From: Limulus polyphemus
Lineage: Eukaryota
Reading direction: 5' to 3'
Assembly (NCBI RefSeq): GCF_000517525.1
Contig: NW_013665974.1
Span: 239,503 to 290,856, forward strand
DNA length: 51,354 nt
Shown: positions 9,260 to 43,793 of the stretch, in pieces
Position numbering within the stretch: position 1 is the stretch's first letter
How the letters are laid out: each line of letters opens with the position of its first letter
The notes under the pieces: generated by a model
Databases searched by the model: none
What the model was told of the DNA's origin: nothing
What the model saw: only the letters and a program-made list of their open reading frames with translations
Made by a program: the position numbers and the translations under genes

Positions 9260-9397
9260 TTATACCTTAGATGACTCCTCAAGAGCTTTAGAAGATGTAA
9301 TTCCAAGAAGACCTTTTGCTGTAGAGAAAAGGTTGAGAGGAGTCATCCCGTCTGTAATTAAAGTTGACTTGATACCAAGTCCTTGCAACAGCTTCAC
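9260..9397 (-). CDS. MVP: MVP terminal coding exon 14, 138 nt including the TAA stop at 9262..9260. [45 protein letters not shown]
   Basis: Acceptor tttatctttag|GTGAAG. Matches human '[32 protein letters not shown]...'. The protein ends only 14 residues after 'GLLG', whereas the human sequence as I remember it runs about 48 more residues through a Pro/Gly/Gln-rich tail. Confidence 0.88.
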
Positions 9398-9602
9398 CTA
9401 AAGATAAATATTTGATTAATTGCTTTATAGATTTTATATTACATATACGATCTCATAATATCACAAAATTATGCTACCATGTATTGAAATAAACATTGGT
9501 GCATCATGTAATTTGTTAGAGGTTGAAGAAATACATAACCCTTTGAAGTATTTCAGATGTGTCTATAAAAATATCAGTGACGGTTAATGATAAAAATAAT
9601 AC

Positions 9603-9791
9603 CTGCAGTTCTGGACCTGCCAAAGCAATGGAACGGATGGTTTCTGATCCTAGAGAATCAACTATATTTTTGAATTTCTGAGTCTCAATATCTGTAATTT
9701 CTTGAGCTTTTAACACTTCTAACCGGTTCTGTTCCCGAAGGTAATGAATCTCAGCTGTCCGAGCTTGAGTTAATCGTTCCAGTTCTGTCTC
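9603..9791 (-). CDS. MVP: MVP coding exon 13, 189 nt, phase 0. ETELERLTQARTAEIHYLREQNRLEVLKAQEITDIETQKFKNIVDSLGSETIRSIALAGPELQ
   Basis: Acceptor tttttctctcag|GAGACA, donor CAG|GTATTA. Matches human '[61 protein letters not shown]'. Confidence 0.9.
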
Positions 9792-9899
9792 CTGAGAGAA
9801 AAATCTGTATTTAATACATCTTCACAGGTGTTATCTTAAATGACTTTATTATTATCCAGTACCCAAAAAAATATCATAAATCATTGTTACCTTATACAA

Positions 9900-10430
9900 A
9901 AAAGAGAAGAGATTAAATTGTATGAAATAAACATTTTGCTTGGTTTACTGTCAGAAAATTTATCCAGTTACAATGTAAAGCTACTGTAAAATCGTGATAA
10001 GATATAATAAATATTACAAAAATGAAAACTTTGTTTGACATTCCATGCCAGTTTTTTTTTACAATTGATGAAAATACTTGATAGAGAAGGTGTTACACTA
10101 TTTAATTTTTTAAATGAAAACCCTTGATAGAGAAAGTAAAAGAAACTCTTTAGTATGAGAAAGTATTCATTTTGTGAAGGAAACCTCTGATACAGTATTA
10201 AACTGGTTCACTGTGTAAAGTATAAATTCTTGGTCAAGAAAGTATTACACAGACTAATTTTGTAATAACAGCCTTTTTTTTGTTTTAACAATAATTTGTT
10301 AAAACTATAGTACTAGCAATAACAGGTATCAGCTTATAGCCCTAATGAGACTTAAGAAACGAATTTTGATATTGTATACGAAGTTTTTATTTGAAGACTA
10401 TGTTAATGTTTTCATAGCACTGTTTTACTA
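9900..10430 (+). repeat. R1 fragments in MVP intron 12, arranged as R1 tail / R1 head / R1 tail-start. This looks like a tandem junction with an internal deletion
   Basis: 9900..10110 matches 8900..9090. 10140..10350 matches 7080..7260. 10370..10425 matches 8845..8900. Confidence 0.65.
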
Positions 10431-10489
10431 TAAGTCCTATTTTCAATTATGTAACAGGAGATTTTAGATTGAAAGATTTGAATACTCAC

Positions 10490-10733
10490 AGCTTCAATTT
10501 TCATGGCTTCAGCTTTTAATTTGGCTTGCTCAACTGCAGCTTCACCTTCAATTCGCTGAGCCTCTGCTCGGCTCTGGGCCTCTGCTTTAGCTTGTCCACA
10601 GCTTTCTACAATCATGCTAGAAGCTTGTAGCTCTAACAGTTCTTTTCGGGAATGTTCTGCTTCTACCTCATCTGTAATCTTCTGTCTTTCAAGACGACCC
10701 TTTGCTTCTTGCTCACGTCTTTCTGCCTCATGC
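10490..10733 (-). CDS. MVP: MVP coding exon 12, 244 nt, phase 2 to 0. (R)[81 protein letters not shown]
   Basis: Acceptor ttgttatccag|G, donor GCT|GTGAGT. Matches the human cap-helix segment '[83 protein letters not shown]'. Confidence 0.9.
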
Positions 10734-11105
10734 CTGGATAACAATATGCAACATTTTACAGCAGTTGTTGAACAGATTAATTTAACTAATAAACTAAATT
10801 TAACTACTAATTTAATCAAATGTAAAAAAAAAAAAATGATACAAAGACAATTTCTCATTTGTGAGAAGGAATACTAATGCAAAATTAACTAGTAATTTTT
10901 TTGATAAAGGAAAAAAATATATATTCTAAGCAGGGGTTTTCCTAGTGTACAGTTGATCACAAATTTTGCATCTGTAAAAATAATTTTGCAGTTGAGAAAA
11001 TCCTTAGGAAAATCTCTGATTCTAAGTTTAACTACTATAATGTATGATTAACAAACTAATAGATTGGAAGTGGTAAATAAGCTTTATTACTGAAACTATT
11101 TTAAA

Positions 11106-11605
11106 CCTAATAATTTCCTGAGGAATACTGTGTTAACACAATTATAAATGTATTGATTTGTTTTTAAAAAGTATTTAGAAAGGTTTTGTTAAAATTTTAT
11201 CCACTCCTAATAATTTCCTGAGGAATACTGTGTTAACACAATTATAAATGTATTGATTTGTTTTCAAAAAGTATTTAGAAAGGTTTTGTTAAAATTTTAT
11301 CCACTCCTAATAATTTCCTGAGAAATACTGTGTTAACACAATTATAAATGTATTGATTTGTTTTCAAAAAGTATTTAGAAAGGTTTTGTTAAAATTTTAT
11401 CCACTCCTAATAATTTCCTGAGAAATACTGTGTTAACACAATTATAAATGTATTGATTTGTTTTCAAAAAGTATTTAGAAAGGTTTTGTTAAAATTTTAT
11501 CCACTCCTAATAATTTCCTGAGGAATACTGTGTTAACACGATTATGAATGTATTGATTTGTTTTCAAAAAGTATTTAGAAAGGTTTTGTTAAAATTTCAT
11601 CCACT
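11106..11605. repeat. Tandem array of 5 copies of an exact 100-bp unit, about 95% identical between copies, in MVP intron 11
   Basis: The unit 'cctaataatttcctgaggaatactgtgttaacacaattataaatgtattgatttgttttcaaaaagtatttagaaaggttttgttaaaattttatccact' restarts at 11106, 11206, 11306, 11406 and 11506. Only single-base substitutions occur (gag/aag, ttttt/ttttc, caca/cacg), with no length variation. Confidence 0.9.
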
Positions 11606-12664
11606 TGTCTAATTTCTGTTAGAAGTTCCAGAGAGGTTTGTAGAAAAATTAAGTATCAGAAACATTAGTGAGAAACAAAGTAGGCTATCTTGTATTTTTA
11701 TGGGATTAGGATAAAAAATATAGCTTTTTAACAGGCTTCAAATAAAAAGATAACACATATTCAAATGCAGGAAAAAAAATAGTTTCTGCATAATCACAAG
11801 AAATGTGGAGTTATAAGTAAATCATGACATTTGACTTTAATAACTTTCATAATTATTTGATACATCAAATAACAACTACATTGGAAGTATAAACCCTAAC
11901 TATACCTAAACTAAAACTCTGTTGAACTTGTACTTCATGAAAATATAAAACAAAATACTTGATTCAAACATAGAGAGAGCTGTGTATGATATTTAATAAT
12001 GCCTTCATTTGGTGTACTGCTTTCAGATATGGGATTTTATACACAACCCTTTATGGTTTCGGTTGTGCAAACTCTGAAATTAGAAGGTTACTGAGCATAG
12101 ATTATGACATATATAAATTAACAAATTAAAAAGAAAACGTGTTGAGATGAAAAACTTGGAATACGTTTTAACCTGCACAGTATGCTATACATTAAAAAAT
12201 GTGGTGCTTTTCTAATGTTAGAGATACTTATTTTTGGTGTTAACAATAAATGTCTGAATACAATAAAAATGTAAAGTCTCTTTAAATTAGTTTCATAATC
12301 ACATTATGATTTTAAAAATATATTAAGCATAGGATAAGAATAATAGGAAAAACTTTGACTTGCACTTGTATTACCAGAAGATAAAAAAATTGGTTCTGGT
12401 TAAGAGCCATAGAATAGTTATTTATAATAAGTAACACTGTAGAAATCACCCATGAAATGAGATCCTGCTCTCTATGTCATGCTTGGAATGTGGCACTCAA
12501 GTACAAACTTGTTACTTTAAAGTCATTGGAAGTGCAAGTGGTGAATGTCCATTAAAAGTATTTAAACTTGTAAAACAATTGAAACCAGCTTTTAATTAGA
12601 AACAGTCTTATGTTCTACTATTAATACTAATAAAAAACTAACTCTTAATTTGAGAGGTTCTTAC

Positions 12665-12876
12665 CTAGCAGTAGCTTCGAGAGACTGAGTAGTAATCTCA
12701 ATGGCCAGTTGCACTGACTTCTGCAGTGAATCCCTTGTTCTCTGATCCACAGGTTCTACACTTTGAATGTCCACACTAGTGATAACAAGGTTGTTTTGAG
12801 GAAAAGAAAACTGATTTCTAATTTTTTGGTTCTCATCCTGCCCAAAAACAGCTAGTCGAATTATTCTTACAGAGTT
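12665..12876 (-). CDS. MVP: MVP coding exon 11, 212 nt, phase 0 to 2. [70 protein letters not shown] + AG
   Basis: Acceptor tttccattcag|AACTCT, donor GCTAG|GTAAGA. Matches human '[81 protein letters not shown]'. No listed ORF covers it. Confidence 0.88.
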
Positions 12877-13743
12877 CTGAATGGAAATAACAACAGAAAC
12901 ACTAATGAAATAACATATAAAAAAGTTAATCCCTAAAGTTTTGAGGTATATGCTTTATACTAAGCAAATATAATGATGTAAGAGAAACTTCTAGTTTTAA
13001 TTACCAAATATTCCAAATCAATTTTCACATAATAACCCAAAACATTTTCTTCATCACCTAAACTACATGTATATATTAACAATTTCTTCAATATTTTTGC
13101 CAAGAAGAAGGAATTGTTCTTTTATTACACAATTAACAAGGTAAAAACAATTGCACATCTTCATATGTGGTGCTCAAAATATTCCTATACAAAGTTTCAT
13201 ATGATTGACCAGCAAGTTCTGAGACAAGAGAAGGAGAGAAAAATATTTCTTTCTATAAATAATGATACTAATATTTATTACATATGACTTTAACAGAGAA
13301 ATTTTAGTATAGATGTAAATTTCAAGTATAACATTCATAAAGTAATTATTTTAATTAGACTAGGCTGGAGAAATCGGATTCACAGAGGAACAACAATACT
13401 TAATGCTTGAGGTCACTCTTGTAAAGCAAAATACATTGTTAGAAAAGAAAATTAAATGCAACAAAATACTCACTACTAATAGAATCGAATCAAAAATATC
13501 ATTATTATCCTGCAAATTTTTTGCCTGAATGCACAGCTTCTGATAAACAACAATAGCTGTTTAAAGGTTTATTACCTAAAGAAAAGTCTGATAATGAAAA
13601 CAAGTGCTTGTCTTAAAAACATGATTCAATATTATTTTATAAATAACACACAAAACAAACTTGCTCCATGAACATTACTGACAGCTTCATGAAAAAAACA
13701 AAAACAAATTACATAACCTTTGTAAAATATAAAGGGATCTCAC

Positions 13744-13885
13744 CTTATGAAAATCATCAAAGCAGACACTAGCTACAGCTCCCCTAATCCGAGAAGCCAG
13801 AGCCTTACACAAGTCTCCCACAAAGTCTGGAACACTAAAGAGCTTGGTAGCTGACTCAGGGCTCTTATTACCAAACTCAAAATGC
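13744..13885 (-). CDS. MVP: MVP coding exon 10, 142 nt, phase 2 to 0. (W)[47 protein letters not shown]
   Basis: Acceptor ttatcttcag|G gives TG+G=Trp. Donor AAG|GTGAGA. Matches human '[48 protein letters not shown]'. Confidence 0.9.
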
Positions 13886-14699
13886 CTGAAGATAAAAGAC
13901 AAATAAAACTGCTTGGTACTTCATATATCTGAAGTCAAACTCTTGTAAGTGTTGAATGAACAGCCTACAAGTAACTTATGATAACAATGTGTATTACTTT
14001 AACTTACTAATTGAATAAATTTTTAAAAATATTTCATTGAAACTGTGATAAATTTTTAGTAGGTTTCAAATTTTTAAAATTTGCAGGTAGATTTCTTCAA
14101 GGATCTTGAACTTCTTTATGAAGTATAAGAAAATCTCTCATTATTTTGAAGTTTATGAATTCACAATAATATTATGCTTTTGTACATCAATCAATCAATA
14201 AATATATATATATGTGTGCTTGTATATATATACACAAGCATTTCAGATTAAATCATAGTGTTTATACCACCACAAAATTTGCCCACAAAAGAGTTGGAGG
14301 AATTGATTATTGTAAAATCCAGACTCTTTCACCAAAAACCAAAAATGCTAAGCTTGAGATGGCCTTCTTAAAACCCTGGTCACGAGTCCACTGAAGTGGT
14401 TAAACAACTAAGAACTTATTCAATGACTCCTATCCTAAGTGCTTACCCATGTAGTACATACTACATCCAAAATGCTTAAACTGCAAGAAATCATTTCAAA
14501 ACATATACCATAATGCTTCAAATAAACAATACCTTTCTCAGCCTCACCCATGGCTTTAAAATGCTTTGTTGTGTAATTTTGTAAGAAATGTATAAACTTA
14601 AAAATAAACTTTTCCTCTGTAAACTTGTGACAACATAGTGTCACGAGAATAAAATAATACTGAAAAAAGTAAAAATTACCATGTATATCAAATCCTTAC

Positions 14700-14897
14700 C
14701 AATTATATGCCAACTGCAGCTGAAGACGAGCATGGTCAGCTGTTTCAACAGTAATAATGTCAGTGCAAAAGTCTGGACCAAGCAATAGACAGAGAGAACG
14801 AATCACGTTAGGACGTTTAGGTTTCCCACCAGACAAGCTAAGTTGGGTAAACTGTTCATCAGGTCCTAGCATAACTAAGTCTGGTCCAAACACAACC
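14700..14897 (-). CDS. MVP: MVP coding exon 9, 198 nt, phase 2 to 2. (R)[65 protein letters not shown] + TG
   Basis: Acceptor acttgaag|G gives AG+G=Arg. Donor TG|GTAAGG. Matches human '[67 protein letters not shown]'. Confidence 0.9.
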
Positions 14898-15376
14898 CTT
14901 CAAGTACAAATTTAAATGGTATTAAAACATAAATAACTATAAAAATATATTCATGACACTTAGAAAACATATTGGATAAAAAAACAACAGACAAATCACA
15001 TAAAATACTTGGAGCAGACCTTTCTTGTTTCACATTTCAACCTAATATCTCAAGTGCTTTACTGATACAATTCTCCAGTTCACCCCTAAAGAAGGAAAGT
15101 TTTACTTTCCAAAAGCACTCAGATTATTAGGATTATCGTACAGTGTTAACAAAACAGCATTAAAAAATTAGAAATGAAAGCCAATGGAAAGAATTTAAAG
15201 TAACTTTATTATTTCAATATTATCACTTGTACAAAAAAAAGGACATATATTTTCATATTGAGAGGAATTAAAGAATACACTATATTTTTACTATTAGAAA
15301 AATATAACAGCATAGGCTTTCTAGGTCACAACAATATTACAATTCTATATTTATAATGATATTAATTACTGTTCAC

Positions 15377-15644
15377 CTTAGTTCAGGAGTGAAATTCTGC
15401 TGGTAACCACTGGTATTGAGTACTAGAACTTATTTTTTAAGGTGGTACTAGCACCGAGACTTATTGGAGCTGCTTTTTCGGAAACGCGTGCGTTCCGTTG
15501 TTCCATTAGAAAGAATTTATTCATTGACACTCAAATTGTCGTTTTTTATGTTTACACGTAGCTTTTTTTTCTTTTTCAAAACAGGTCCACTTCACCCAGC
15601 TGAGTACCTCTACTTTTTTTTTTAGAATTTCACCTCTGCCTTAG
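15377..15644. mobile_element. Candidate MITE-like element of about 268 bp with imperfect terminal inverted repeats of about 22 bp and an unusually CpG-containing core. Lies in MVP intron 8
   Basis: The left end 'cttagttcaggagtgaaattct' and the right end 'agaatttcacctctgccttag' are reverse complements at 17 of 22 positions. The interior 'cggaaacgcgtgcgttccgttg' is CpG-dense against an AT-rich background. Confidence 0.3.
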
Positions 15645-17282
15645 TTTAATCCTAGACTATGACCTTAGTCCATCTTTGCTTGTCATATCCATTTGTGGAC
15701 AAAAGTAATATTAAAGCCACAAAAAAATTTAGAATTTGAGTTTTAAATTAAAACCAAACCATTAAAGTTTCCATTTAAAGTGGCTGGTTTCTATATTTGT
15801 CAAGATGTCAATCAAAATACAAGGATGTTTTGTTTGTTCTGTTAAGCAAAAAGCTATTCATTGTGGTAATTGTACTGTGCACCCCATGAGTATCAAAACA
15901 CAATTTCTAGTATTATAAGCCCACTGACTTATTGCTGAGTCACTAGAGAGCAACAGGGTGCTAGTTATTTATAACCTCAAAATTAAAATCCTTTCAACCT
16001 TCAACAACATGAATGAGAACATCAGATTTGCATATTTCTTGCCAAGATAATCCACTTTAAAATAAACAGTATATCTGATAACAGATGCAAACAACTATTT
16101 CTAATAACAATACTTTATTCTAAGAAGAAACTTACAAGAAAATTAAATTGAATTGTTAGAAATTAAGATATACTAAAAAATGTACTACAGTATTTAGAGT
16201 TGTTGTTTAGTAATAAATATGAAATTGTCATAATTAAAAAAACAGTCAAATTTTGAATTTTTATTCATATGAAGACTCATTTTAAAGCATAAATCAAACC
16301 AGACCTACTAATAACAAAAATCAGTTTTTAGATGCACAAATTTGACATACTTTAAAATATTTAGACACTAAACAGATTTCAAGGAGAATAATTGTTGACA
16401 CATTTTAATCATTTAGTGTTTAAAATTTTAAGAAAATTCTTTAAGCTTTTATAAGTGCAAAAAGTACATAATAAATTATCCAAATTTTTCATGAAATTTG
16501 TATGTCTAAGATACAGCATTTAATACATATATCAGTTAAAATACAACATTAGGCACATTACAACCAAATCAAAAATTTGTTAGAATTTTATGCATGAATA
16601 TATATAGTAAAACAAACCTATATTATGTAAGACAAAACAATCCAAGTTACAAAAGAGAGCTCTATATATGGTTAGTCGGAATAGTTTTCAATCAAATCAA
16701 ATAACATTTACATAAACATAAGGGCCCAAAATATTACTCTTGACAATATCCATACCAAGACTAACTGTGTACTGCAGTTTTGGGATATATCATCATTCTG
16801 TTTAGTCAATGATGGATAATGAATATCCAAAATGAGTTTTCATGTTTTTAGGCACAAACTTTGGCTAAATCTAGCTGAAGAGCTATGCAGCTTTAAAAAC
16901 ACTTTTATTATGAAAACAAATTACAAAAATGAAAGTGTGAACAAAATTTACATTATATACTTCCAGTTGCTTGAAATATGCAAAACCATAAAAACAAACT
17001 GCAAAGATCAAGTTCACTTTATTGTTTATTTATTACTATTATAATTTATATCATATTTGTCTATGCTTATCCCATAACAGAAATATACAAAGTTTCTAGT
17101 GGAAAACACACTTAAATTAATTACAAGTTTATTTTCACAGAAGAAAAAACAATAAAAACAAAACTTTAATGGACAAATCAGTACCAGCTATTAATATTCC
17201 TACAGAAAAAGGTAGTAGATACTATATAAACATTAAAGCTTTGACAGTAATAATTTTGTTATAAATGTTTTTAAAACCTTAC

Positions 17283-17542
17283 CTAGCCTTTTTTTCTTTG
17301 TAATCATATACTTGAACAGCAGCATTGTGAGGTACCCTAAGTGTTACTACCCTGGTCTTTTCACGAGCTTGAGAAATTGGTTGTGCTAAGCCAACAGCTG
17401 TGGATCGCTTGTTCCAGTCACCTCTGTCAGCTAAAGGGTCCTTGTAGCCTGACAGAAGATCCTCAACTACAGAAGGCAGCTCTTTAGGCCACAACTCTTC
17501 ATCTTGATTTAACATGTATGTCTCTCCACATACTGCTCTTAC
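17283..17542 (-). CDS. MVP: MVP coding exon 8, 260 nt, phase 0 to 2. [86 protein letters not shown] + AG
   Basis: Acceptor cctctgaag|GTAAGA, donor GCTAG|GTAAGG. Matches human '[41 protein letters not shown]...[24 protein letters not shown]'. Confidence 0.9.
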
Positions 17543-18015: not shown

Positions 18016-18165
18016 TCGTCCAGTTTTGATGTTTCTAACATAGATTCCTTCGTTCTCATCAAGGGGAATGGAATATCGCTTGATAATAGCTTCTACTTCG
18101 GTTGGTGGAATGTACTCAACAGGGCCACGGATCATCCATTTGTCACCAGGGTTTCTCTTAACAGC
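18016..18165 (-). CDS. MVP: MVP coding exon 7, 150 nt, phase 0. [50 protein letters not shown]
   Basis: Acceptor ttattattttcctcag|GCTGTT, donor CGA|GTATGG. Matches human '[48 protein letters not shown]'. Confidence 0.9.
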
Positions 18166-20809
18166 CTGAGGAAAATAATAATGTGAAATTAAGCCAATAA
18201 TTTCAATATAAAAATCAAGATCATGCAAGAACCTCTATCTCTTAAATTAGAGCAAGTTATTAGTAAATTTATCATTACATTATACACAGATTATTATTTC
18301 AACTTTTTTCCTATTTTTTGAAGAATTTGTTTCCTTCACTCATAAAAGCAGTTTCTGAAAGCTCTCAAACTAAATTCATCCTGGAGAAATGTTTTAACTA
18401 TATTGTAATAACGATGCAACCAATTTTATTTTTTGCTTTTATTTTCCATATATTTTAGTATTTAAAACAAAGGCTTTATTATATCTTCTTTGAGTTATAA
18501 TTAAAATTAAAGAACAATTCTAAGTATATAAACACGTTTCCAACCACTTAAAATTATTAAATCTACTATGTTTTTGTACTTGAAATATGCATTAAAGCCC
18601 GATGAAATGTTCGTTTGATAAAAAAATGGCATAAAATGAAATATATTAATCAAATATTCTTGAGGGTGGAAGCATATTATGCTAACAGAATAGTAAACTG
18701 ATACACAATGATTTACTATTAATCAAATATTCTTCTTTTAACCCTGTACATGTTGCTTTTTTCATGCCTTGTTCCTAACCATTCCTGTGGTCTTTGCCTA
18801 CAAAGTTTAAAGGCCCTGACCTTTTTTGTTGCAATTCAGTTGAAACATGGCAATTTACAAGTTCATATAGGTATCAAAAATTGCCATTTTATGAGAAAGT
18901 TAAATTACAAGACTTGTCAAGGCAAAGTTCTAAATATATGCTAAGTGAGAAAGTTATGTTGGGCTATCTGCAGTGTTTACCGATGATAATGAAATTCCAG
19001 ATTTTAGCATAAACTTACTGCTGTCCCATTGGGGGACATAAAGAAAGGGATACCTATAGTATTGAATCATATTGGTAATGCAAAGGAAGGCTTGATTCCA
19101 TCAGAGAAAAACAGGATACCCTACAATAGGCTAACATTTAAACATCAGTGATAGTGAAGAAAAGTTTAAACAGCTTGTCACCAGAAGCAACCCTAGAAGC
19201 CCATCAGAAGCCCTAGAAGTAAGCCCATCACAGTTGAAATAGAAACCTATGTGGCAAAAGTGTAAACAAAATAATTCACACAGCACTGCCATACAAAGCA
19301 ATTCTGGAGTGGTCAGGCCATTGCCACATTGCCATTTCTAAGGGAGTATGGAGGCATTCCCTCCCAGGAAATTTTAGAAAATTTAATGCTTTGAGATTGA
19401 ATCTTGAGCCATTTTGACTACAAATACTGTATACACACAACGTAATGTAGTTAATTAAAAGAAGCAAGTTTTAATACGCAAGTTGTAGATATACATGCCA
19501 CAAAAAAGTGGTCAGGCCAAGGCCTGACTGGCCTTACCACTTCCTATGGCCCTGCACAGATTTAGGTCTACAAAGTACCATAAGATCCATGTTCACATGC
19601 TTCTCCCAAAACATACAGATGAACAGAAGACTGTTGAAAACTGTACAAGTAGTGTTTAATATAGCAAATGAAATTATGTCATCATACAATATTTTCTTAA
19701 GTGTCATTGATCTAAAAAAGTCCAAACAATTTATTATTATTCTACCAGTGATAGAACACTTAAAACATGGTACAGAACATGTCATGAAAGTTTTCCATAA
19801 GATTTACTGCAGTAGGCAACATCTATAATAGTAAACTAAATATCAGGAGAGTTGATAAATATGCTAAGATGAACTCTGTGTACTATCAGGACAGTATGCT
19901 ACCACCACTTGACAACAATAAGGTATGTCTCCATTAAGAAAAACATTCAGTCATCAGCTACAGCTCCAAGTCAAGGTGCTAGTTCCTTCACAAGATGCCA
20001 GTATAAATGGAAATTTATGCTATACATTCACATTAAGCATATCCCATGAATTTTTGTGTTTTCAACTTTCTCAAATGGGCACTCATAAGTCAGCTTCAGC
20101 GCACAGTTGATGGAGTTTGCAAATAATTTAAAGAGATGGTGACATTAATCTCAATGTAATGTGCAAAAGACTTTTGCAGTAGAAATTGCATTACAGAGGA
20201 ATAGTCCATAACAATGGTAAACGCATAGAGACCATAAATAATGGAACAAGGGGCGGTAAAGCATAGACACTCATCCTTATAGATTGCTATCATAGACTGT
20301 GAGAACCACTCTTGATTACTGAGATAACTTATCAAATCATATCTATCAGATATTATATGTGATGGGGCAAAATATATATCTAACAAAGAAAATTAAAAGT
20401 CTTGTGTGTTAGAGTCTGTGCTTTTTTAAGCAACCTGAAAGACTACTATTAATGTTTATGTGGATCATGATTTCTAATTATGAAACATTTAAGTTGCTAA
20501 GTTTGACAGCTGATTGTAAAAAACTTTTAAGTGTTACTAACTCAGTATAATTATTTCAATGGCACAAGGAATGAATGAAATAATTCCATATGAGTTTGCC
20601 ATCTAAGTGCTACATAGCAGAGTTATGTGAAGTAAGTCTAACAAAAATTAAACTAAATGTTTATCAACTAAAGTTTTGGAGCCATCTTTTGACAAGTCAT
20701 TCAGAAACTTATCGTTAAACATATAATAATAACTATAAAATTAAAATGTGCATATATTTTTTCTATAATATGAATAACTGATCTTATAAAATGGTATAAA
20801 GAAAGTTAC

Positions 20810-20941
20810 TGGTTGAATGGTGTCATCTAAAAAAGACTCCCTTGCTCTCAGGATTAGTCCTTCATCTTCTCCCATGACATTTATATCTTGAATACCATTT
20901 TCTAGCTTTTCATTTGGCATCAGAAAGAAAGATATTTCACC
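20810..20941 (-). CDS. MVP: MVP coding exon 6, 132 nt, phase 0. [44 protein letters not shown]
   Basis: Acceptor ctcttctag|GGTGAA, donor CCA|GTAACT. Matches human '[46 protein letters not shown]'. Not present as a listed ORF. Intron 5 is only 212 nt. Confidence 0.85.
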
Positions 20942-21153: not shown

Positions 21154-21390
21154 CTTAACCAACTTTTTTTGACCAAGTTGTGGCTTCCCATCTTCACCAA
21201 CAGGATCAAGTATGACACAATACTGGCGATTAGACAATGTTGTAATTGGCACAACCCCAACTACTTGTTCATAAACCCCTGGAATGTAAGTTTCTGTGTC
21301 TGACATCTTAACCAACCACTCTTCTCCATTCTTCCTTGTTACGCCTAGGTCATCCTGGAAAGTTCTGGTTGCTCTCACATGTACTGCTTC
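21154..21390 (-). CDS. MVP: MVP coding exon 5, 237 nt, phase 0. [79 protein letters not shown]
   Basis: Acceptor ttttattccag|GAAGCA, donor AAG|GTACAT. Matches human '[79 protein letters not shown]'. Confidence 0.9.
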
Positions 21391-28626: not shown

Positions 28627-28853
28627 CTTTTCTGTCAGAACATAGGCATCAACAATTTCTACAATTTCTTCATAGGCACCTGGTAAGTAAGCACCTGTTT
28701 TCCTGACTAGCCATTCTTCTCCACAGAACCTCATTTTACCATCTCGATCTCTTGTCTCTGTGCGAGCACGAAGTTTAAGGGCCTGGTTTGGTTTAATAAC
28801 ACAAGCTTTCACTGTTTCCAAAACTACAACTTCCTTACGAGGAATGTAGGTCC
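28627..28853 (-). CDS. MVP: MVP coding exon 4, 227 nt, phase 1 to 0. (G)[75 protein letters not shown]
   Basis: Acceptor gataatag|GG completes G+GG=Gly. Donor AAG|GTGAAT. Matches human '[57 protein letters not shown]...ILTEK'. Confidence 0.9.
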
Positions 28854-31311: not shown

Positions 31312-31432
31312 CTGGTCCTTCGAATAACCATTCATCGCCAGCAACTTTCTTGTCATTACTATCTTCAAAATCTCTCAGTGCCTGTAATCTAAGGGCTGTG
31401 TTTGACGGCACAACTTTCAGAAGTGTAACATC
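31312..31432 (-). CDS. MVP: MVP coding exon 3, 121 nt, phase 0 to 1. [40 protein letters not shown] + G
   Basis: Acceptor tttttag|GATGTT, donor CCAG|GTAGAA. Matches human '[42 protein letters not shown]'. This exon has no entry in the supplied ORF track and was found by direct translation. Confidence 0.85.
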
Positions 31433-34400
31433 CTAAAAATATCACACCAAAAACATACATTGTACACATTAATGTTTTATTCTGTGTGTTTTAACTAAAT
31501 ACTAAAGTCTAGAAAACTTGGTACAAGTTAACTGTTATTGTTAGACCAACAAAATACTGTGCTACCCTCCTTTCTTAAGAAAATACCTTTACATAGATAA
31601 TTTCGAATCAAAAAGTGTGCATTAACAGAAAATCATCAGAGTGTAATTAACACAGAACTGTCTTAATATAGCATATTTAAGATTTAATGATTTATGTATC
31701 ATCTTGCTCAAGATCTAGAAATAAAACATTACCTTTTTAAGGAAAGCAACAATATTGTACAATTGAAAAGAACAAAATCAGATGTAATTGTGCCTTTGGA
31801 ATTCACTAGTATACAGCATGAAAAAATGTCACCATGGAATGATCATATTTTGTGATCAGTTGACACTTTACCTTCACTGTTCAATGAAATTGACCAAAAT
31901 CCCTAACTGAATTTCCCATTACAAATTTATAATTATTTTTTTATATAAATCTGGTATGTACATTTAATTTTGATTTACTGTACCACAATCAAAGGCTTAT
32001 TAAGGTTAACTGGCACCCTAGGCCCATAATTTTAGATGTGTCCTTTCCTTTTTGAATGACTAACCAGCAAAATTATCCAACAACATAAAAACAACAATAA
32101 ATGAAAATGCAAAAAATTCCATGTAAAGTTAACATTTTCCTTAATAAAAATGTATTTTTGATAGATACTCATCTCCATACACAAAAAGTGATTTTCCTCT
32201 TGAAATCGAGCTAATCTGCCTGAGAGACTTCCATGCCACCAGCCTTGTGAAAATTCCCACTTAAAATTCATGTGAAATTGCGCTACTGCATGATGACGTA
32301 TCATGTAGAAAAATCCTCCACCAATAGTAGTGCAACACACCTCCTTGCGCAAATGCTCCCTCTATATTCGCATGCAAAATATGTCATTCTTTGAAGAGAC
32401 AACAAATGAAGGTGCACTGGGAAAGTAAGGAGGATGGGTGCAAAGATGTATGGAGGTTAGTATCTATCAAAATACACTGCTCAAGTTATTGCACTCTGGA
32501 TCCAAGTCTTGAAAGCCTACTGATTAATACACCCCTTAACACAATATCTAATGAAAACTCAAGAAAATTAACACTTCAAATAATAACAAAACACTCCATC
32601 ACTGATTTAGGAAGGAACATGCTTTGATGTAGTAATTTTCATTGTGATTTTTTTAAAGATTTAAAAAGATTGAGTATGTTATATTAAAATGATTTTGAAG
32701 CTTCATCATATCACTACAGTTCATGTAACCAAGTCCTGTGATGCTCTAACTGATAATTCTGAATTTTGACAACAACCCTGCAGCATAGTTTTCATTGTAA
32801 AAGGCTGAATCATAAGGCTGTCATTTCCAAAGAATACCATACCTCTTTGCTTGCTTTCCATAACCCATCCAGTGTATGAAAATGATGGTTTCCAAGTGGC
32901 CATTTAAACAGTTTGATTGTCAGAAACCTATAAGCACTGCATCCAGCAACTTGACCTATATGTCTACATATAAAATAGCACAAAAACCCATTTCATTCTC
33001 CAGCTGCTTGAGGTATTCAACAGTTGAATGGGAGGTATGACAGGAAGCCTTATATTGGTGAACACATAACCAGATGGCCTTGTTTTCATATAGAGATCCT
33101 TTTTTATAATATTGTGTACTGTTTCCTGGGACATATGGACAGCTTTTTAACAATTACCTTTGTGTTAGTGGATTCTCACTTGTTACAAGATGCTGTGCTT
33201 TGCTTACCATGACTGGGATATGACTTGTTGCAAGTCTCTTTCTAGATAATCATGGTCAGTTGATCTGTATTCTTTTGCTTTCCAATGGCATTAAGCACAA
33301 GAGATATTCTCATCTTGGAAATTCTACATCCCCAATCTGAATACATCTATGTAATCTTAGTGCATGTAAATTTTGCATCAGAAAGGCCTGTAACATACCC
33401 TTCCCAAAAGCAGTCAAATATCATTGGCATCTACCTACTAAATGTCATACAATTTCAAAATATAGTTTTTTGTACAAGCTGTTCCACCACAAATTTACAT
33501 CAGCTGTGGTTGTAAGGTGACTTGCTTATTTCAGATTCAAAATCATATTAATATAAAATACTCAACCCTCTGTATAAATAATAAATAAATACAATGAGTA
33601 AAAAAAAATCACATTTTATCAGGCAGGACACATTATTGGAGAATTTACAGAAAAATATTTAGTTTAACATATATAAGAAATGTAGTCTGTGCTTATTTTC
33701 ATATGCTTCAACCAAAGTGAAGAATTATTAAGAATGAGCATATTTTTGTCATATGTATAACAAAAATAATAGATTATTGTATAATATAAGAATTTTCATG
33801 GTTATATGCAACTTGAGATTGAGAAAAATAAAGTTGCAACAGAATCCTTAAATACAAGTTGTTATCTTTTACACATAAAATGACTTAGTTCTTAGGATGT
33901 TTCAGAAAACAAATTTCATAATCGAAACAGAGACTTTATGGTGTAGAATGCCTTAGCTGATAAACAACAAACCTTAAGAATAATGTGCATTTGGCATAAT
34001 ATCACAATAAGACTAATAATAATTTAAATCACATCATTATTTACTGTTCCAGTGTGAGTCTCCAGTAAGAAGAGCATATGACAGTACTTCAACTATGCCT
34101 TTTATTGCATGACTCTGTTGGATTACATTGTTAAAATATACAAAGCCTTGATTGAAATATTACCTACATTTAACAGACAACAATTTTTTCCTTATGAAAG
34201 TTTAAGCATGACATTTAGTTTCAATAGATATAGATCACTACTAAACTAAATGTCATGCCCTGCCAAAAGAAGACACTCAACACCTTACAACATCCTGTCT
34301 CATGAACAATTAATTTAACATTGAGTGAAAGGCCTCATCAGCAGCAACATACAATGAACAAGGTGTAGCCAAAATCTGTTATACTCTCTCTTTTTTTTTA

Positions 34401-34619
34401 TTGGAAACCTATATTGAACCAGTAGTGATTAATGTAATTTAAAATATTATCACTCTAATCATAAACATACATTTCTACTAGAAAACATTTAGTTTTTTCA
34501 AAAATGTTGATTCCTGTTTTATCAATTAAAAAAAACAAAAGCCCTGCTCATTCTACATTATTTTATGCAAGAATTACATGATCTTATACATTGAAGTATT
34601 ATTATAAAACTGTTATTAC

Positions 34620-34815
34620 CAAGTGTAGGATTTCTCCAGGGTATAGAGGAAATGGTTCTTGCTCCAATCTAATTTCCAGGTCTGCATGTTGCAGCTTAAC
34701 TAGGCCAGCTGCATCATACTGTATTGAATGATCATCTCCACGCACAACAGGGTTTTGTATGACACAGTAGTGGCGTGGTGGTACTATTACCATTTTATCA
34801 GGACCAAGAATTACC
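34620..34815 (-). CDS. MVP: MVP coding exon 2, 196 nt, phase 2 to 0. (R)[65 protein letters not shown]
   Basis: Acceptor ...caataaag|G, donor TTG|GTAATA. Matches human 'VLFAPMRMVTVPPRHYC...[26 protein letters not shown]'. The first G completes AG+G=Arg. Confidence 0.85.
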
Positions 34816-35410: not shown

Positions 35411-37239
35411 GAAAAGCTTAAAAATACAAAATAAAACAAATAATATCATTTTTCCTCTGCACTAACTGCAGTATTGATAAGAAAGTTTCAAATTACTTAA
35501 TAGTTTCAACCATTAGCCTTTTCCAGTTTCCTTTTAATTTCATGGTCTTATTGCTGTTTTTTTGTACCCAGTGGAGCAATAATCCCTGCATCAAAAGCAA
35601 AAAATCACAGCAGAAATCATTTAGCTATTTCCTGTAAAGTTAACTTAAACACCACATGGTTGTCACATGTAATTTTACACATGAGCTCAAGCATGTGAAC
35701 TTAAAATGTTTTACTGTACTAAAGTTTTGTTATGCTAAGCTAAGAAGTTTCTAATTTTTTCATTTTAAATACTTTTATTACAGAATATATAATATTATAT
35801 ATGAAAACAAGGACCTGTTACTAACAATGTTAATACCCATGCATACTCGAGCTTGTTTACACTTGAGTAAAAACAGACATTCTTCCATAAGCCTCAATCA
35901 GTCTCACAAATTTAGACTTTTAGAAAAGAATTCATGTGCTTTCAAATATACATTTGAGAATAAAAAAATTACCAGTCACTAGAACAGAATGTCCTAATCC
36001 TAGAATATTTTATCTAGCTTTCTTAGTAAGCTATAAATAAGTAATAAATAATTTAATATTCAGAGCAGCAAAGTATACACATCACATATCAAGTAATTTG
36101 GCTGACTAACAGTTTATGTTGGGAAAACTAAACAACAACTTATAAAATTTGTGTATAGGAGAACCTACTTTTTCTATTGGTTATAAACATGTCCATCAGC
36201 TATGTACAATTGATTAGAAAACAATCTTAAAAGTCAGAGAGAGGAGGGGTCTTCTCTGATGGGTTTGACATCTTTAATGGTATCTCAACAAGTCAAACAG
36301 GTAGTGTTATCAATGATTGATTATCTCAACACTCTGAATTACAACTGGGCAATCAGCAGAATCTGCTAATAAATTCAACATTTGGCTCCTTCATCAATTA
36401 CATTCAACTAACTGATTACTCTCTTAAAAAAGTAATCTTCCTATTTTCAGCTTGTTTTGAGTTTTTTATTGCCATTTCTAAATTAATGTATTTATCTCCG
36501 CTAACAAAAACCTTTCTTGATTTATATTGCCCTCTATCTGAACAAATGTTTGCTTACCACTAACCTCGATACTCCCACTTACTCTGGTGTATGTTAACGT
36601 GAGATATCTGCATACTAACATGCAAATGATTATGCTGCAACCCTACACCAATAGGAGTACAACATTACCCCTACCATATCTAGTACTCTCTCCAATCATG
36701 CAGCCGTTAACCACTTTGAGATTGGTCATATCACACCAAACCCCACCAGAAGTGTAGAGGACAGGTGAGAAATGTGAGAGGAGGTAAGTATCTATGGGAA
36801 ATATATTTTCAGTCTAAGAATATGTTAACTTCTGATATCTTACCTCCTCTCACATAAAGCTAGAATCCTACACTGAACAGGTGGAGGACCAGTGAGAAGA
36901 TGATTCTTCTTTAGGAAGTGCCCAAAGGAAAACCACGGGTTGTGAGAAGGAACTATAAACAACACAACCATGGGAGGCACCACTCCTGAGCCAAGTATAC
37001 TCATTGCCTGTGAGTAAAGTGTCATTAAATGGGTGGAAACAAAGGAGGGAGAAAAATTACATAAATAATGGGACCCTTGGTGCAGAGTGGCAAGGGAGCA
37101 ACAGATCGTAAAAGGGAGTTTGACCCCAAACAACACCTGGCAACATCTTGAATTGTACATAAGGCTTGCGGTAGGCAAAAGGTCTTCTACCTTTCACCTA
37201 AAAAATGTTACCAGCAGGGAAGAAAAGCTTCAGTACCAA

Positions 37240-37690
37240 CAACCCACAGGCACACACCTCTAAAACCAGATCCACCAGGAACTGAAATCCAGCTAATGGT
37301 AGGAAGGAGAAGGGCCCAGTTTGGTGTTCTTCTCCAGTCCAAAACCTGGCAGCATTGGTAATTTTTGAAAATGATAGAAGGTGGGTACCAAACCTCACAC
37401 CTGTGGAAATTCCTGTGTCTCATCCAGCTCCAACCAACACCAGATCTACAGGGAACCAACATCCAGTGGACAGTAAGAAGGGGGATGGCCATATGGGTTT
37501 ACTTGCATCTCCAGTCCAAAACCTTGTGGCATGGCAAATTTACCATCCAGTCCGCAGTAGGAGGAGGGTAACCATCCAAACACATGTGAGGACTTGTTTG
37601 GCTGGTCCAGCTCCAACCAATACCAGATCCCCAGGAACCGACATCCAGTAGATGACAAGAAGGAGGGTGCCTCAGATGGAGGAGGCAAAC
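37240..37690. repeat. Internal tandem repeat of about 2.4 copies of a 183-bp unit inside the DIRS-like block
   Basis: 'ccagctccaaccaacaccagatc' restarts at 37424 and 37607. The unit 37424..37606 aligns along its length with 37240..37423. A ~50-bp motif 'caacacctggcagcatctggaattgtaca.aggtcc' also recurs at about 37128, 37338, 37510, 37724, 38037 and 38316. Confidence 0.7.
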
Positions 37691-38317
37691 TGCAATATAT
37701 ATATATATAGCAAAGTGCTACACCCAACACCTGGTGGCATCTGGAATTAGACATCAGTTCTGTAGTAGGAAGGGCATCATACCATCTACACTGGAAGAGT
37801 GCCACTGCTCTACTCTCAACTGAGTGGTATTGTGCACACTCAGGAGGACAGGCCTCCATGGTCTACCACCCTAGTAGCTAGAAACTGGTAAGTGGCAAGG
37901 ACTCCCATACTCTAGAAGGAGGAGAGAAATAATGCATTGGAGAGTCTGAAGGACTGCAACACTAGAGACAAAGCAATGGGTGACTGAGATACCCTATATA
38001 GAAAAGCAGATCAATGATGTTGATGGAGTGCATTATCCTACTCCTGGTGGAATCTGGAATTGTACATCAGGTCCATGGCCGGACAAGCATCAAATGCTAC
38101 AGATCATCAGAGGTGGGCAACAATCCCTGTCTGCTTTACTCATGTTAGTCCATGACTTTTAAGTCTGGGACGAACATATTTCTGAAGCAAAAGACCATGA
38201 GGTACACCTAGGAGCAGTCTTGCAGAACACTCTATCTCCACGGTGGGCATAAAATGACCTGGATATATTTTAGGAAATTGTATTTTGAAAGCCTAAGGAA
38301 CACAGTGACAGAGTCAA

Positions 38318-39034
38318 TCAACCAACACCTGGCAGCATCTGGAATTGTACAAAAGGTCCACAGTAGGAATACATAGCCACTAACAGAACATTACACAGAG
38401 TGATCTGAATTGTTACAAAGACACTTGGAAGGAGATGAATAGGAGGATATGCATATAGGTACCAATCCCGACTGAGAGCATCGACTGCTCCCATCAAAGA
38501 ATGAGGAACAGAAGACCAAAATCGGGGAAGTTGTATATTGAGATAAATGGCAAAAGCATCCAAATCTGAGACACCCCACCATGCACATAACACCCAATGA
38601 TGATCCAAAGACCACTTCATAAGGAGAATCATGTTAGGACAGGATAACTGATCCACAACCAGATTCAGGACACCAGAAATATGGCATGCTAACAAAGTTA
38701 TGTGATAGCTGTGGGCCCAATACAGAAGACCAAATATCTGAAAAAAAGAGGTCTCTCGACTGAGTGCCCCCTTGCCTGGTGATGTATGGGACCAACATAG
38801 AATTGTCAGAGTGGACCAGTACTGACCAGCCCCAAAGTAAAGTTTAATGAACAGCAAGAAGTTCCAAGAGACTGATATGGAGAGAGGACTTGGAAAGAGT
38901 CCAACACCCGAAAACCTCCTGAGTGTTGAGATATGCCACTCAACCAGAAAGAGAAGCATCCATAAAAAAGTGACATTCTGGACAAGAAGGGGGGAAGGGG
39001 AACACCCACAGTAGTATTGTCCCAATCCAACCAC
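38318..39034 (-). pseudogene. Retroelement polyprotein fragment, RNase H C-terminus plus the downstream 'YAYPP' domain. Truncated 5' by the SINE at 39082
   Basis: This ORF is in the supplied six-frame track. The motifs are listed under the parent element. No RT motifs could be recognised upstream (39204..39767), which suggests heavy decay. Confidence 0.45.
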
Positions 39035-39081
39035 CAGGTGAAGTCAGTCTGTAAGGGAGGGAGAGAAAATGGGCATTTAAA

Positions 39082-39200
39082 GGTTTGTTTATTTGTTTGT
39101 AGTTAAGCCCAAAACTACACAATGGGCTATCTGTGCTCTGCTCATCACGATTATCAAAACCCAGTTTCTTGCATTGTAAGTCTGCAGACTAGGGGACAGG
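39082..39200 (-). mobile_element. 5'-truncated tRNA-derived SINE copy with a (CAAA)n-like 3' tail, nested inside the DIRS-like element
   Basis: The plus strand reads 'ggtttgtttatttgtttgtagttaagcccaaaactacacaatgggctatctgtgctctgctcatcacgattatcaaaacccagtttcttgcattgtaag'. 'tatcaaaaccc' is a B-box-like remnant. The same domain recurs at 45008 and 50392. Confidence 0.65.
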
Positions 39201-40837
39201 CATCTATCTAAGGGATCCCAAACAAGGCTCCATTGGTCTATCAAAATTCACTGAAGATTGTGCATGTGGGCATGACCAAGAGTAATGAGGGCTTCTAGAG
39301 AAGCCCACTTCCCCAAAAAAGAAAGAACCTCTTGCACAGTAGGAGAATAAACGGATGAGACGCTGCATATGAAATGTTCCATAGCTCTCAACCAAAGTGG
39401 AGAAGGTTGGGCCCAACTTAGGAGGGAGTTGAAAACACACCAGGATGAATCAACTGTTGTGTTGGTGTGAGAAAAGACTTCTCCACTTTGACAAGTCAAC
39501 TCACCCTGGCAGCTTCCTGGAGAAGAAACTGAATATGTAGGACTTGTGAAGAGACAAGAAGCAGCCAGTTGTCCATGGAAACGAAGGCCTCTGGAATGAA
39601 GCAGGCAGACAAAAGCCCTGACAACTTAACAGGTCACACATGGAGATAAGGCAAGTACAAATGAATGTGCCCAAATGTGAAACACACATCCATGATGAAC
39701 AAAGTAAAGACACTATCTGGCTGCAGGGGAGATGGAGATATGTATCTGATGCATTGACCTTTGTCATTCACAAACCTAGAGTGAAAACACAATGAAGACA
39801 TTGCGACATTGATCAATTTAATCCTAATTGATTATTTCAATTAATCAAGCTAATCATCCAGCTCTAACCCATTCAGGTATAGAAGTTTCATTGGGAGCCT
39901 GAGTTCTCTGTGACATTTGAGGCCTACAAACCACATTAATAATGCCCTGTGTGCACAGAATCCCATCACTTTTGTATTTGCACAACAAGGCAATATCATG
40001 TTCATATGGATGTATTACTCTGTCATGTTGAATCCAGAAAGAATACTTACTTGAAACATGGCAAGAATTGAATCTTTGAATGAAGATGACCATCCTTTTC
40101 TCTACTGACCCACATGTCAAAAAGGATATTTTCAGACAGATGTTATGTATATGATACTGCCTGCTTCAGTTGACCAGAGAAAATTTTCAGACACCTATGG
40201 GAAGTTTAAAACCACAACATCTACTTCAAACTTTTCCCCACAATTAGCCTCTTTTGCATCATGTTTCAGTCTTTTCAATCTGTTGTAATGTATTGAGTTC
40301 TTTCATCCTTTTGGAAATGTATTGTGCAACAGAAACATCAGTTTTTACATTTTGTATGAGAGCAGGCCAGTAGCAGTTGCAAAGAGCACAGACAGTTACA
40401 GGTTAATAAATACCGTGCACAGTAGCTTCCACTATTTCAATAAATGAACACTTATTGATTCTACCACCCATTTTACTTTTGTGAGAAGTATAGAAAGACT
40501 GGGTTTCTCTTACGGATGTGAGTCACATCTCTTTTATTGAAAAAATGGCATGTGGGTTTTCACACCATCTGGATGTTTGTATGAATAAGATACAATGCAT
40601 CACTAAGTTCTCTATCTACAACAGCCATGACATGCAACTGTCTCTACATACAAAGGTTTTTGGCATTATTTCTAAATCTGCAATGAATAAATTGCTTGCA
40701 TTATGATTTCACCCATCAGTAATATATGGACCACAGACCAATAAAATGTCAGTGGATACAAACATCACAGGTTTGACAAGTGGCCACTTCTTATGCATAC
40801 TATACCTTTGCATCTAGAATGCATATTTGACTTATGC

Positions 40838-40843
<6 letters not shown>

Positions 40844-40870
<27 letters not shown>

Positions 40871-40874
40871 AACA
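40844..40874. repeat. Compound microsatellite (TA)n(CA)n
   Basis: 'atatatatatatatatatatacacacacacaaacaaa'. Shorter TA or CA runs occur at about 14195..14240, 27335..27360, 37688..37705 and 44958..44975. Confidence 0.8.
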
Positions 40875-43638
40875 AATGTGCCATATGCAATTAGGATGAC
40901 ATCTTTGTTCTCTTTAGTCAAAAAGTTCCAAGCAAGATGAACCAATATGTTCAAAGTCTAAGACAGAGAACAAGTCAAGTGTATTGCTCTTTTTTTTACA
41001 GAAAAAATATTTTCCAAGGTAGGTCTACTGTTTCTTGATTTTGAACCCTCCCCCCAGGGATTGCAAAGTAATTTTTGTGGGAGGGCCGCAAAGCTACTAA
41101 ACACAACACTGACTTTAATGTTTTCAAGAAGCATATTCAGGTTTTGCTGACTTCTAACTTATGATGCCAGTTAGCTGGATATAGAAGGTTCTTTTCTTTT
41201 GTGTGTGCATGGTTTATATCTAATCATTTCAGTATTATTCCATTTCATGATATTGTTTTCTCTGGCAAGATGGGCTATTGCAGTTAGATCATTACTATAG
41301 TCTTTTATGTTTATTATGCCCCTCAGACCCGAATTCTGATTTTTGTTTATGTTTTTGTTTCTTCAATTTATCAGAGTCGACATTCACAAAGGATATTGTA
41401 CACGACATTCTTGCTAAACACATTGTGTTGTGATTTGTGAATACCGTTCTACATTTATATTGCTTACATTTTTATGTATATTTATTATTGAGACCTTTGA
41501 CATATTGGAAAATGGTTGTTTTTCCTGTGTCTTCCTGCTTATACATGATGTTTATCTCCTATCTTTTCTTCATCAAGTATTCAGAGCACCCACTATCAAG
41601 GAAGATTGTAAATGATGTATTTTTTTTCTTCTTCTTAGGATCTTCTGTATTACAAATCCTGTTCAATCTAGAAACTAGGTAGTCTTTGATGGCCACTTAT
41701 ATACTGTTGTAATAATTTAGTCTATATTCAAGGTATTCATCTATATCTTTGGAGGTTACAGGAAATCCATAGATACAGGTAAATACATTTATTTTTTACC
41801 ACAAGACTTTAAAAATGTAAAAACAGATGTCACAAACTGACTAATCTCTAGACTGAAAAAAGTTTGTACTTCCAAAGCATGAAATGAAAAAAATAAATGG
41901 AGAAACAGATTTTGTTATGAGCAGTTTATGAAGCTTTAAAATATACAATATTTATTCAATGCAATTAATGAAAATTGGAATAAAATGTCCCTTATTATTA
42001 TTAAAATAATATTGATACATTTTATTAGTTAAGATATTATTAAGGAATTACATGTGTCATTGCAACTAGGCTTATATCCTACATTTGTTTTTAGGTGTAC
42101 CATGGAAAAGCTGACGTCTTGAATTCTCAAAGATGAAAGAGCTGCTGACATTACATAGTAGGGAGGTGGCTTAATGTGTTTTCTTTGGTAAAGTGATATT
42201 CTAGTGTGAACATGTTTCCAGTTACCAAAACAAGATACTTATAAGATGATGGTTCAAGACAGCACTAATGTTTGTGTGTTCCCTAAGTAAGCTAAACTAT
42301 ACTGTTTATTTATTGTTGCTTTCATTAACAATATTGGTTATACTGCTTATTACATCAAATGTCATTAATTTTTTATTTATTGTTTATTATTAAACTTTTA
42401 TCACAGAGGTTGTTGTTTTGTATTGTTAGCTTATAATGTGTGTATTTAGGACTAACCTAAATCTTCTAAGCTGGTTGAACCTCATGAGATATTATTGGGA
42501 TTATGGCTGAAAATATTGTTAATAGTGAGAGTACTAAACTGATGAAACAACACATTCTAATCTTTTTTTAAGTAGAAAAGAGAGAAAGGTATATTTAACG
42601 AGTTATAGTGATGGCCAAGTTAATTTTAAGTTTCATTCTAAGTACATAGCTTATTCTGTTTGAAAGTTGTTATTATTATTATCATACATCATTAAGCCTG
42701 TATCCAGATCTAACAATCATCACCCCTTTCTAAAATTCTGTACCCACCCCTAAAGTTAACTAGCACAGAAGCCAGCAAAATTTAGATACTCCTCTTATAA
42801 GTAAATGATTTATGTCCTCAGGGAGAATACCCTGTAACAGTGTATAGCATTGCAACTTTTCTAACAAGAAGAACCAGGACTGAATGATGGCCACCACAAC
42901 AACCACACACAATCCTTCTCAGAATTTCCTTCAAAACAGCATCAAATTAGTAACTGAACCACTAATAATAACAATAATAACACAGGCCTATGAAGTTAAA
43001 CATCATAAAAGTTGTTTTGATTTTAATTTTGAAAATAATATTAATTTTTTTCTATCACATAAGGATTTTATACAAATTGGGAAAAAGAACTCTTATTTAA
43101 ATCAAATTAACATTTTGTTTACCACAATGAAAATTTTTTACTATTATGTTTGTTAACAAAAATACAAACAAACTGAAGAAAAAAGAACACTGATGCCAAA
43201 CAAATATGCATCCTCATTCATCCAGAGTTTTCTGTGGTTTTTCTTTTATGTATTGCATTATGATGTTTTGTGAAAAATCTGTATCTGAGGAAAATGGATA
43301 TCATTTTTGGATTCAGCATACAGGAATTACTGTAGAACATGTAAAAATTTCAAGACAATAAAACCATCGCAGGCCTGTGTAACTAGTAACAAATTAATAA
43401 TTAATTTAGGTATTCATACGAGCTATTAACCATGACAACAGTTAATGTCATATTACCACAACCTTACTGTATGTCCATAGCTGTATAATTATATCTAAAT
43501 ATTTTTTATTTACAAAAAATTTCTTTCACATACATATTTCCAAGTATCCATATATCAAGTGCATTTCTTTACAGCTCTCAACATTAAAAACCCATTTTCA
43601 ATTTCAATGAAGACAAAATAAATATATTTTATACTAAC

Positions 43639-43793
43639 CTTTCATTATCTTTCCTAATGTAAGTTTGTGGTCCAACTTCTACTCTTGTTACATTTGATGT
43701 CTGGTCTAGAACATGGAGGTAGTAAAATGGTGGAATACGATAAATGCTACTATCATCAGACTGCCCCTTTTGATTCACTTTTGATCCAGCCAT
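43639..43793 (-). CDS. MVP: MVP coding exon 1. ATG at 43793..43791. Product [51 protein letters not shown] + AG. Donor AG|GTTAGT. Ends in phase 2
   Basis: Reverse complement of 43639..43793 read directly. Matches the human N-terminus '[36 protein letters not shown]'. 'tttttttctgaatttatag' ends at 43834 on the minus strand, 40 nt 5' of the ATG, so it is a likely acceptor with the true first exon being non-coding and further upstream. There is an in-frame stop 27 nt upstream of the ATG. Confidence 0.75.

Follow-up and report, generated by a model that had tools for sequence, protein, structure and literature searches.

In the major vault protein (MVP), nine repeat domains are followed by a shoulder, a cap-helix of 155 residues and a cap-ring, and 78 chains form one vault particle (PMC7916137). 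The human MVP gene consists of 15 exons (PMC7916137), and the mammalian proteins are represented by the structures of rat and human MVP (PDB 4V60, 4HL8 and 7PKZ). Among the Ecdysozoa, Daly et al. (2013) found no MVP in arthropods (PMC3762200), a claim that has since been overtaken by a 2024 survey reporting MVP in 41 ecdysozoan taxa and in most ecdysozoan lineages. The carriers in that survey comprise Chelicerata, Crustacea, insects of the Archaeognatha and Zygentoma, and two marine nematodes, and a well-supported loss was assigned to the Pterygota, the winged insects (PMC11219742). The proteins matched in the present analysis likewise include MVPs from scorpions, spiders and myriapods.

Here, we describe an MVP locus in a stretch of 51,354 nt (the window, meaning the whole DNA analysed), which is AT-rich with a GC content of ~30%. 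Short open frames with translations resembling MVP line up along the minus strand of the window. A rough join of these frames was used as a query and retrieved 3473 matching proteins, headed by XP_013772610.1 (P0001; 870 aa, E = 0). A second Limulus MVP and Tachypleus MVPs ranked next, followed by scorpion, spider, myriapod, mollusc, hemichordate, echinoderm, cnidarian and sponge MVPs. The top match, 'major vault protein-like [Limulus polyphemus]' (UniRef100_A0ABM1B123), is an NCBI prediction from a 648-kb Limulus scaffold.

Identity and exon-intron structure of the locus

A tblastn search of XP_013772610.1 against the window gave 14 collinear matches on the minus strand, the E-values of the individual exons ranging between 1e-19 and 3e-50. 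To place the junctions, all GT/GC donors and AG acceptors located ≤45 nt from each match boundary were enumerated, and those combinations were kept that were in frame, free of stops and in agreement with XP_013772610.1. For each of the 13 introns between exons 1 and 14, this search returned one solution with zero mismatches, in every case GT-AG, and the next-best solutions carried 6–79 mismatches. Together with a short fifteenth exon discussed below, the coding sequence amounts to 2613 nt, in which the terminal stop is the only one and there is no frameshift; all 14 introns are GT-AG (Table 1). In the list of open reading frames (ORFs), an in-frame stop at 43817-43815 precedes the initiation codon.

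The 15 exons of the window, once joined, encode a protein identical to XP_013772610.1 in 870/870 residues; the two represent the same gene with no difference at the protein level. We assign positions 6887-43793 of the minus strand to the coding part of the Limulus polyphemus MVP gene, with 15 coding exons and 14 GT-AG introns, at a probability of about 0.96. The MVP signal is real and well above chance, and the locus is correctly interpreted as an intact MVP gene.

Table 1. Coding exons and intron 14 donor of the MVP gene in the window (in-frame ORF lengths are given for the exons with the four shortest ORFs)
Feature	Position	Strand	Length (nt)	In-frame ORF (aa)	Following intron (bp)	Remarks
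Coding exon 1	43639..43793	-	155		8823	ATG 43793-43791; donor GAAAG/gttagt
Coding exon 2	34620..34815	-	196		3187	starts in phase 2; junction gap-free in 21-species alignment
Coding exon 3	31312..31432	-	121	36	2458	
Coding exon 4	28627..28853	-	227		7236	
Coding exon 5	21154..21390	-	237		212	
Coding exon 6	20810..20941	-	132	59	2644	ends in variable-length loop (DDTIQ/PAVK)
Coding exon 7	18016..18165	-	150		473	
Coding exon 8	17283..17542	-	260		2385	
Coding exon 9	14700..14897	-	198		814	
Coding exon 10	13744..13885	-	142		867	shoulder domain begins
Coding exon 11	12665..12876	-	212	37	1931	
Coding exon 12	10490..10733	-	244		698	cap-helix region
Coding exon 13	9603..9791	-	189		205	
Coding exon 14	9266..9397	-	132	45	2361	last codon K865 = AAG, 9268-9266
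Intron 14 donor	9260..9265	-				GTATAA; originally predicted as V866 + TAA stop
Exon 15, coding part	6887..6904	-	18			GGGGAAGAGGACACT + TAA = GEEDT*; acceptor ...tgtttcag; 3' UTR extends downstream

The original prediction, made by eye from the raw sequence, had placed an MVP gene at 9260-43793; the 14 collinear matches bear out an MVP gene, on the minus strand and with its ATG at 43793. All 14 exons that it proposed are real, frame-consistent and joined by GT-AG introns, and none of them contains an in-frame stop. Read through beyond exon 14, the exons of our junction search give exactly the predicted 866 aa and a stop that ends at 9260, so that the 13 introns proposed originally agree with ours at least as regards net length and frame. 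The original prediction had also stated that exons 3, 6 and 11 had to be found by direct translation and that fragments of only eight exons were listed in the ORF track. We recomputed the ORFs from ATG/GTG/TTG to stop with the default cut-off of 60 aa. Exons 3, 6 and 11 were indeed unlisted in frame, but the count of eight could not be reproduced, as in-frame ORFs of 60 aa or more overlap ten exons. Over exons 3, 6, 11 and 14, the in-frame ORFs are all below this cut-off; those over the other ten exons span 61–148 aa, with ends that do not match the splice sites.

All junctions are based on protein homology and on an NCBI prediction. Since that prediction stems from the same Limulus genome, we sought support beyond XP_013772610.1 by aligning 21 MVPs with MAFFT; several of these come from ~3-kb contigs, which are necessarily spliced transcripts. 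Junctions 1–5 and 7–13 (12 of the 14) fall within gap-free, strongly conserved columns of this 21-species alignment. Junctions 6 and 14 are located in segments of variable length, which are not fixed by the cross-species alignment alone. The indels relative to rat MVP reside within exons, with none at the junctions.

The exact protein match identifies the host as Limulus polyphemus (Arthropoda, Chelicerata, Xiphosura), and a contaminant origin was rejected, the product being identical to that of a gene on a Limulus scaffold. The earlier conclusion that the host is neither an insect nor a nematode thus holds, given the 870/870 residues shared with the Limulus RefSeq protein. The premise behind it, the absence of vaults from insects and nematodes, is sound for the winged insects, which show a clear loss, but not for basal insects and two marine nematodes, in which MVP is present (PMC11219742).

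The 3' end of the coding region

The original prediction described a complete gene of 14 coding exons encoding 866 aa within 9260-43793. Reading past exon 14, one indeed encounters GTA (V) followed by TAA, and residues 1–865 of this 14-exon model are identical to XP_013772610.1. The annotated protein, however, continues as ...ESSK-GEEDT, for which reason the GTATAA following the AAG codon of K865 is a splice donor and not coding sequence. The missing residues are encoded after a 2361-bp intron by GGG GAA GAG GAC ACT TAA. When we searched the whole minus strand for the pattern AG/GGN GAR GAR GAY ACN stop, there was one match in the window, aGGGGGAAGAGGACACTTAA at 6906-6887, preceded by ...ttaatgtttcag. 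The final splice had accordingly been missed: the true coding sequence has 15 exons and 870 aa, and since exon 15 lies outside the range given originally, the coding region spans 6887-43793 and not 9260-43793.

A 14-exon form ending in ...ESSKV* might nevertheless be the true product, or a substantial alternative one, if intron 14 were retained or if polyadenylation took place just past 9260. The frame does stay open beyond exon 14, with the TAA six bases further on, the donor GTATAA is weak, and AATAAA-like strings occur within ~200 nt downstream, in AT-rich sequence. Against this form, the RefSeq model uses exon 15, which the window reproduces exactly, and the Tachypleus tridentatus orthologue, predicted from a separate genome, shares the C-terminus ...ESSKGEEDT. 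The exon encoding GEEDT and the stop has a good acceptor and was found exactly once in the window, and the exact 866-aa variant is absent among ~15 billion proteins. Furthermore, GEEDT resembles the short acidic C-termini (for example DDDDE, DEDE or SDDEDA) of many MVPs in the 21-protein alignment; judged from these sequences, it suits the family better than a bare V. We consider the 866-aa form to be quite improbable as a true or substantial product and retain the 15-exon gene encoding 870 residues.

Both 3' ends could also be in use, in which case an 866-aa MVP lacking the acidic GEEDT tail would arise from a minor transcript that reads through or retains the intron, and the two Limulus MVPs might co-assemble into mixed vaults. 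Mixed vaults have been reported in organisms with several MVP paralogues. We regard this combination as an unlikely, tentative suggestion for Limulus.

What was overlooked is a very short terminal exon behind a stop codon inside the donor site, a classic trap in gene finding. The by-eye reading of the raw sequence otherwise recovered 14 of the 15 coding exons and 865 of the 870 residues, which is useful as a calibration of such readings.

Intronic and flanking sequence of the window

Intron 1, the longest of the gene, contains a GC-rich block of 41–43% GC at ~36–40 kb. At E ≤ 0.001, 1057 relatives were found for an open frame of 241 codons in this intron (minus strand, 39043-38321), the match extending over roughly codons 95–225. 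The long relatives carry an RVT_1 domain and then RNase H-like domains, with the matched part located downstream of the reverse transcriptase, and one relative bears a Dam-like methyltransferase signature. DIRS-type retroelements typically show reverse transcriptase, RNase H-like domain and methyltransferase in this order. The copy in intron 1 is broken by stops and frameshifts and shows degenerate direct repeats of 180–310 bp. A tandem repeat of five 100-bp units with 98% identity resides in intron 11.

At the gathering threshold, Rfam gave no match in the window, vault RNA included, and a tRNA scan of the window found none. The only sub-threshold candidates, mir-297 and mir-466 (Rfam E ≤ 0.1), coincided with a TA/CA simple repeat at 40820-40883 and were dismissed as low complexity. 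Homology searches with four long ORFs at 2614-3530, on both strands, returned no match, so that no neighbouring gene was identified there; no second gene was detected in the window. Pfam gave nothing above noise for 20 intronic and flanking ORFs, and a mariner-like relic near 33 kb and tail pieces of LINE reverse transcriptases at 48.3–50.3 kb are therefore no more than impressions from motif resemblance. A scan for bacterial promoters and terminators upstream of the ATG produced fewer sites than shuffled sequences, and the underlying bacterial model is irrelevant for a eukaryote.

Domain architecture and paralogues in horseshoe crabs

The product of the locus matches the Pfam families Vault in four stretches (1e-65), Vault_2 in two stretches (9e-36), Vault_3 (5e-37) and Vault_4 (2e-22), and MVP_shoulder (PF11978) is covered from profile position 1 to 118 of 118 by residues 533-650 (7e-54). 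The matches to all five families are far above the curated cut-offs. Rat MVP (PDB 7pkz_A, 861 aa) aligns in a single alignment of 1205 bits, from residues 14-856 of the query to residues 4-853 of the chain; the repeat fragment 3gf5 is also matched (5e-157), and the cap fragment 9z5n_B corresponds to residues 755-856. At the level of sequence, the product displays all the features expected of the MVP family, namely the N-terminal repeats, the shoulder, the collinearity over cap-helix and cap-ring, and an intact frame.

The Limulus product is collinear with rat and human MVP nearly throughout and shares their layout of R1-R9, shoulder, cap-helix and cap-ring. It differs from them in its C-terminal tail and in a small number of short indels, which are located within exons 3, 8, 10 and 11. 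By homology to the mammalian proteins, its N-terminal part is predicted to fold into nine β-sheet repeat domains, with a shoulder, a long cap-helix and a cap-ring beyond them, and its full-length homology to rat MVP suggests that 78 copies would self-assemble to form the shell of the vault, a cytoplasmic ribonucleoprotein.

At least two MVP loci exist in Limulus. The second protein, XP_013774778.1 (P0002), is encoded on a different scaffold and is a paralogue of the window protein; together with Tachypleus P0003, its orthologue, it has the same domain set and length class, but its C-terminal tail reads ...SPQHKEEE in place of GEEDT. The orthologue of the window gene in Tachypleus tridentatus is represented by XP_076340754.1 / XP_076340755.1 (P0080; isoform X1 = P0117). 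The annotated Tachypleus proteins are N-terminally shorter models beginning at the equivalent of M198, and isoform X1 contains five extra residues (YAFPQ) at the junction of exons 6 and 7. An acceptor for this insertion is absent from the window, in which the dinucleotide located 15 nt before the acceptor of exon 7 reads AT instead of AG.

In the alignment of 21 MVPs, the window protein shows 93.9% identity to P0080 over the aligned part, and XP_013774778.1 shows 88.9% identity to P0003. Identities between the two ortholog pairs amount to 80–83.5%, the window protein being 83.5% identical to XP_013774778.1 and 80.4% identical to Tachypleus P0003, and its identity to a scorpion MVP is 73.9%. 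These identities within and between the pairs place the duplication before the split of Limulus and Tachypleus and after the split from arachnids. Whole-genome duplications have been reported for horseshoe crabs (PMC4066314, PMC7815833, PMC11836539), and the MVP duplication agrees with what these events predict.

With at least two MVP loci in Limulus and a retroelement acquired by one of the introns, the window copy might be thought a decaying duplicate left by the genome duplications, with only XP_013774778.1 being functional. The 2613 nt of coding sequence, however, contain no premature stop and no frameshift, the 14 introns are all GT-AG, and the domain scores are as strong as those of bona fide MVPs. 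Moreover, the identity of the window protein to its Tachypleus orthologue exceeds that within the pair of the other paralogue (93.9% versus 88.9%), which argues for continued purifying selection on the window copy. With its frame intact and its product identical to that of the Limulus scaffold gene, we rejected a pseudogene, a reading that we consider extremely improbable, and keep to an intact MVP gene.

The gene is already annotated in RefSeq, and the locus therefore offers nothing novel and is of low interest as a discovery. Its biological weight is small, the gene being in RefSeq already and MVP having been reported previously from chelicerates. In a lineage that has undergone whole-genome duplications, this locus is one of two MVP copies that were retained.

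The retroelement in MVP intron 1

The first intron of the major vault protein gene (MVP) contains a GC-rich block: a retroelement, now decayed, that is oriented like MVP itself. Within this block lies an ORF with 1057 relatives, the long ones of which carry RVT_1 and RNase H-like domains, and one relative has a Dam-like methyltransferase match. A Pfam search gave no match in the ORF itself. The combination of these three domains among the relatives suggests a DIRS-type element.

Features of the window outside the MVP coding exons
Feature	Position	Strand	Remarks
Open frames, 89-116 codons	2614-3530	both	slightly GC-richer stretch, 36-38%
Tandem repeat, MVP intron 11	11106-11605		100-bp unit x 5, head-to-tail, 98% identity
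YYFPQ-encoding site upstream of exon 7 acceptor	18166-18185
Short frames, MVP intron 2	32700-33200	minus	…VHNIIKKDLYMK…, …HQYKASCHTSHSTVEYLKQ…
GC-rich block, MVP intron 1	36000-40200		41-43% GC vs ~30% for the window
Degenerate direct repeats	37.1-38.4 kb		180-310 bp
ORF within intron 1 block	39043-38321	minus	homologous part ~38761-38369
TA/CA simple repeat	40820-40883		sub-threshold Rfam matches
Open frame pair	48342-48557 and 50025-50285	+	~1.4 kb between

Other open frames and repeats

The translations of the open frame pair, …EEKDLGVLVD…KANRILG… and …VRPYLEYFIHSWSLYLRKDIDSLEKVQRRVTRMI…, resemble the part of LINE ORF2 proteins that follows the reverse transcriptase core, and the short frames in intron 2 look like a possible relic of a Tc1/mariner transposase. 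Pfam neither matched the frame pair nor supported a transposase in intron 2. The GC-richer open frames found no match in Pfam and no homologue among 5.8 billion proteins.

The tandem repeat in intron 11 is a young minisatellite within the MVP gene. At the simple repeat, the Rfam matches to mir-297 (35 bits, gathering score 90) and mir-466 (30 bits, gathering score 85) lie below gathering, and we rejected both as low-complexity artefacts of the TA/CA sequence.

Splice variation and paralogy of MVP

At the exon 6/7 junction, isoform X1 of the Tachypleus orthologue carries an insertion of five residues, YAFPQ, as would result from splicing to an acceptor 15 nt further upstream. Limulus encodes YYFPQ at the corresponding position, where the needed AG was not found and AT stands instead, so that the X1-type alternative splice is probably unavailable in Limulus.

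Outside the window, both Limulus (P0002, XP_013774778.1) and Tachypleus (P0003) possess a second MVP paralogue, sharing 80-83.5% identity with the MVP of the window. The Limulus-Tachypleus orthologue pairs are 93.9% and 88.9% identical, so both copies predate the split of the two genera and have been kept ever since.
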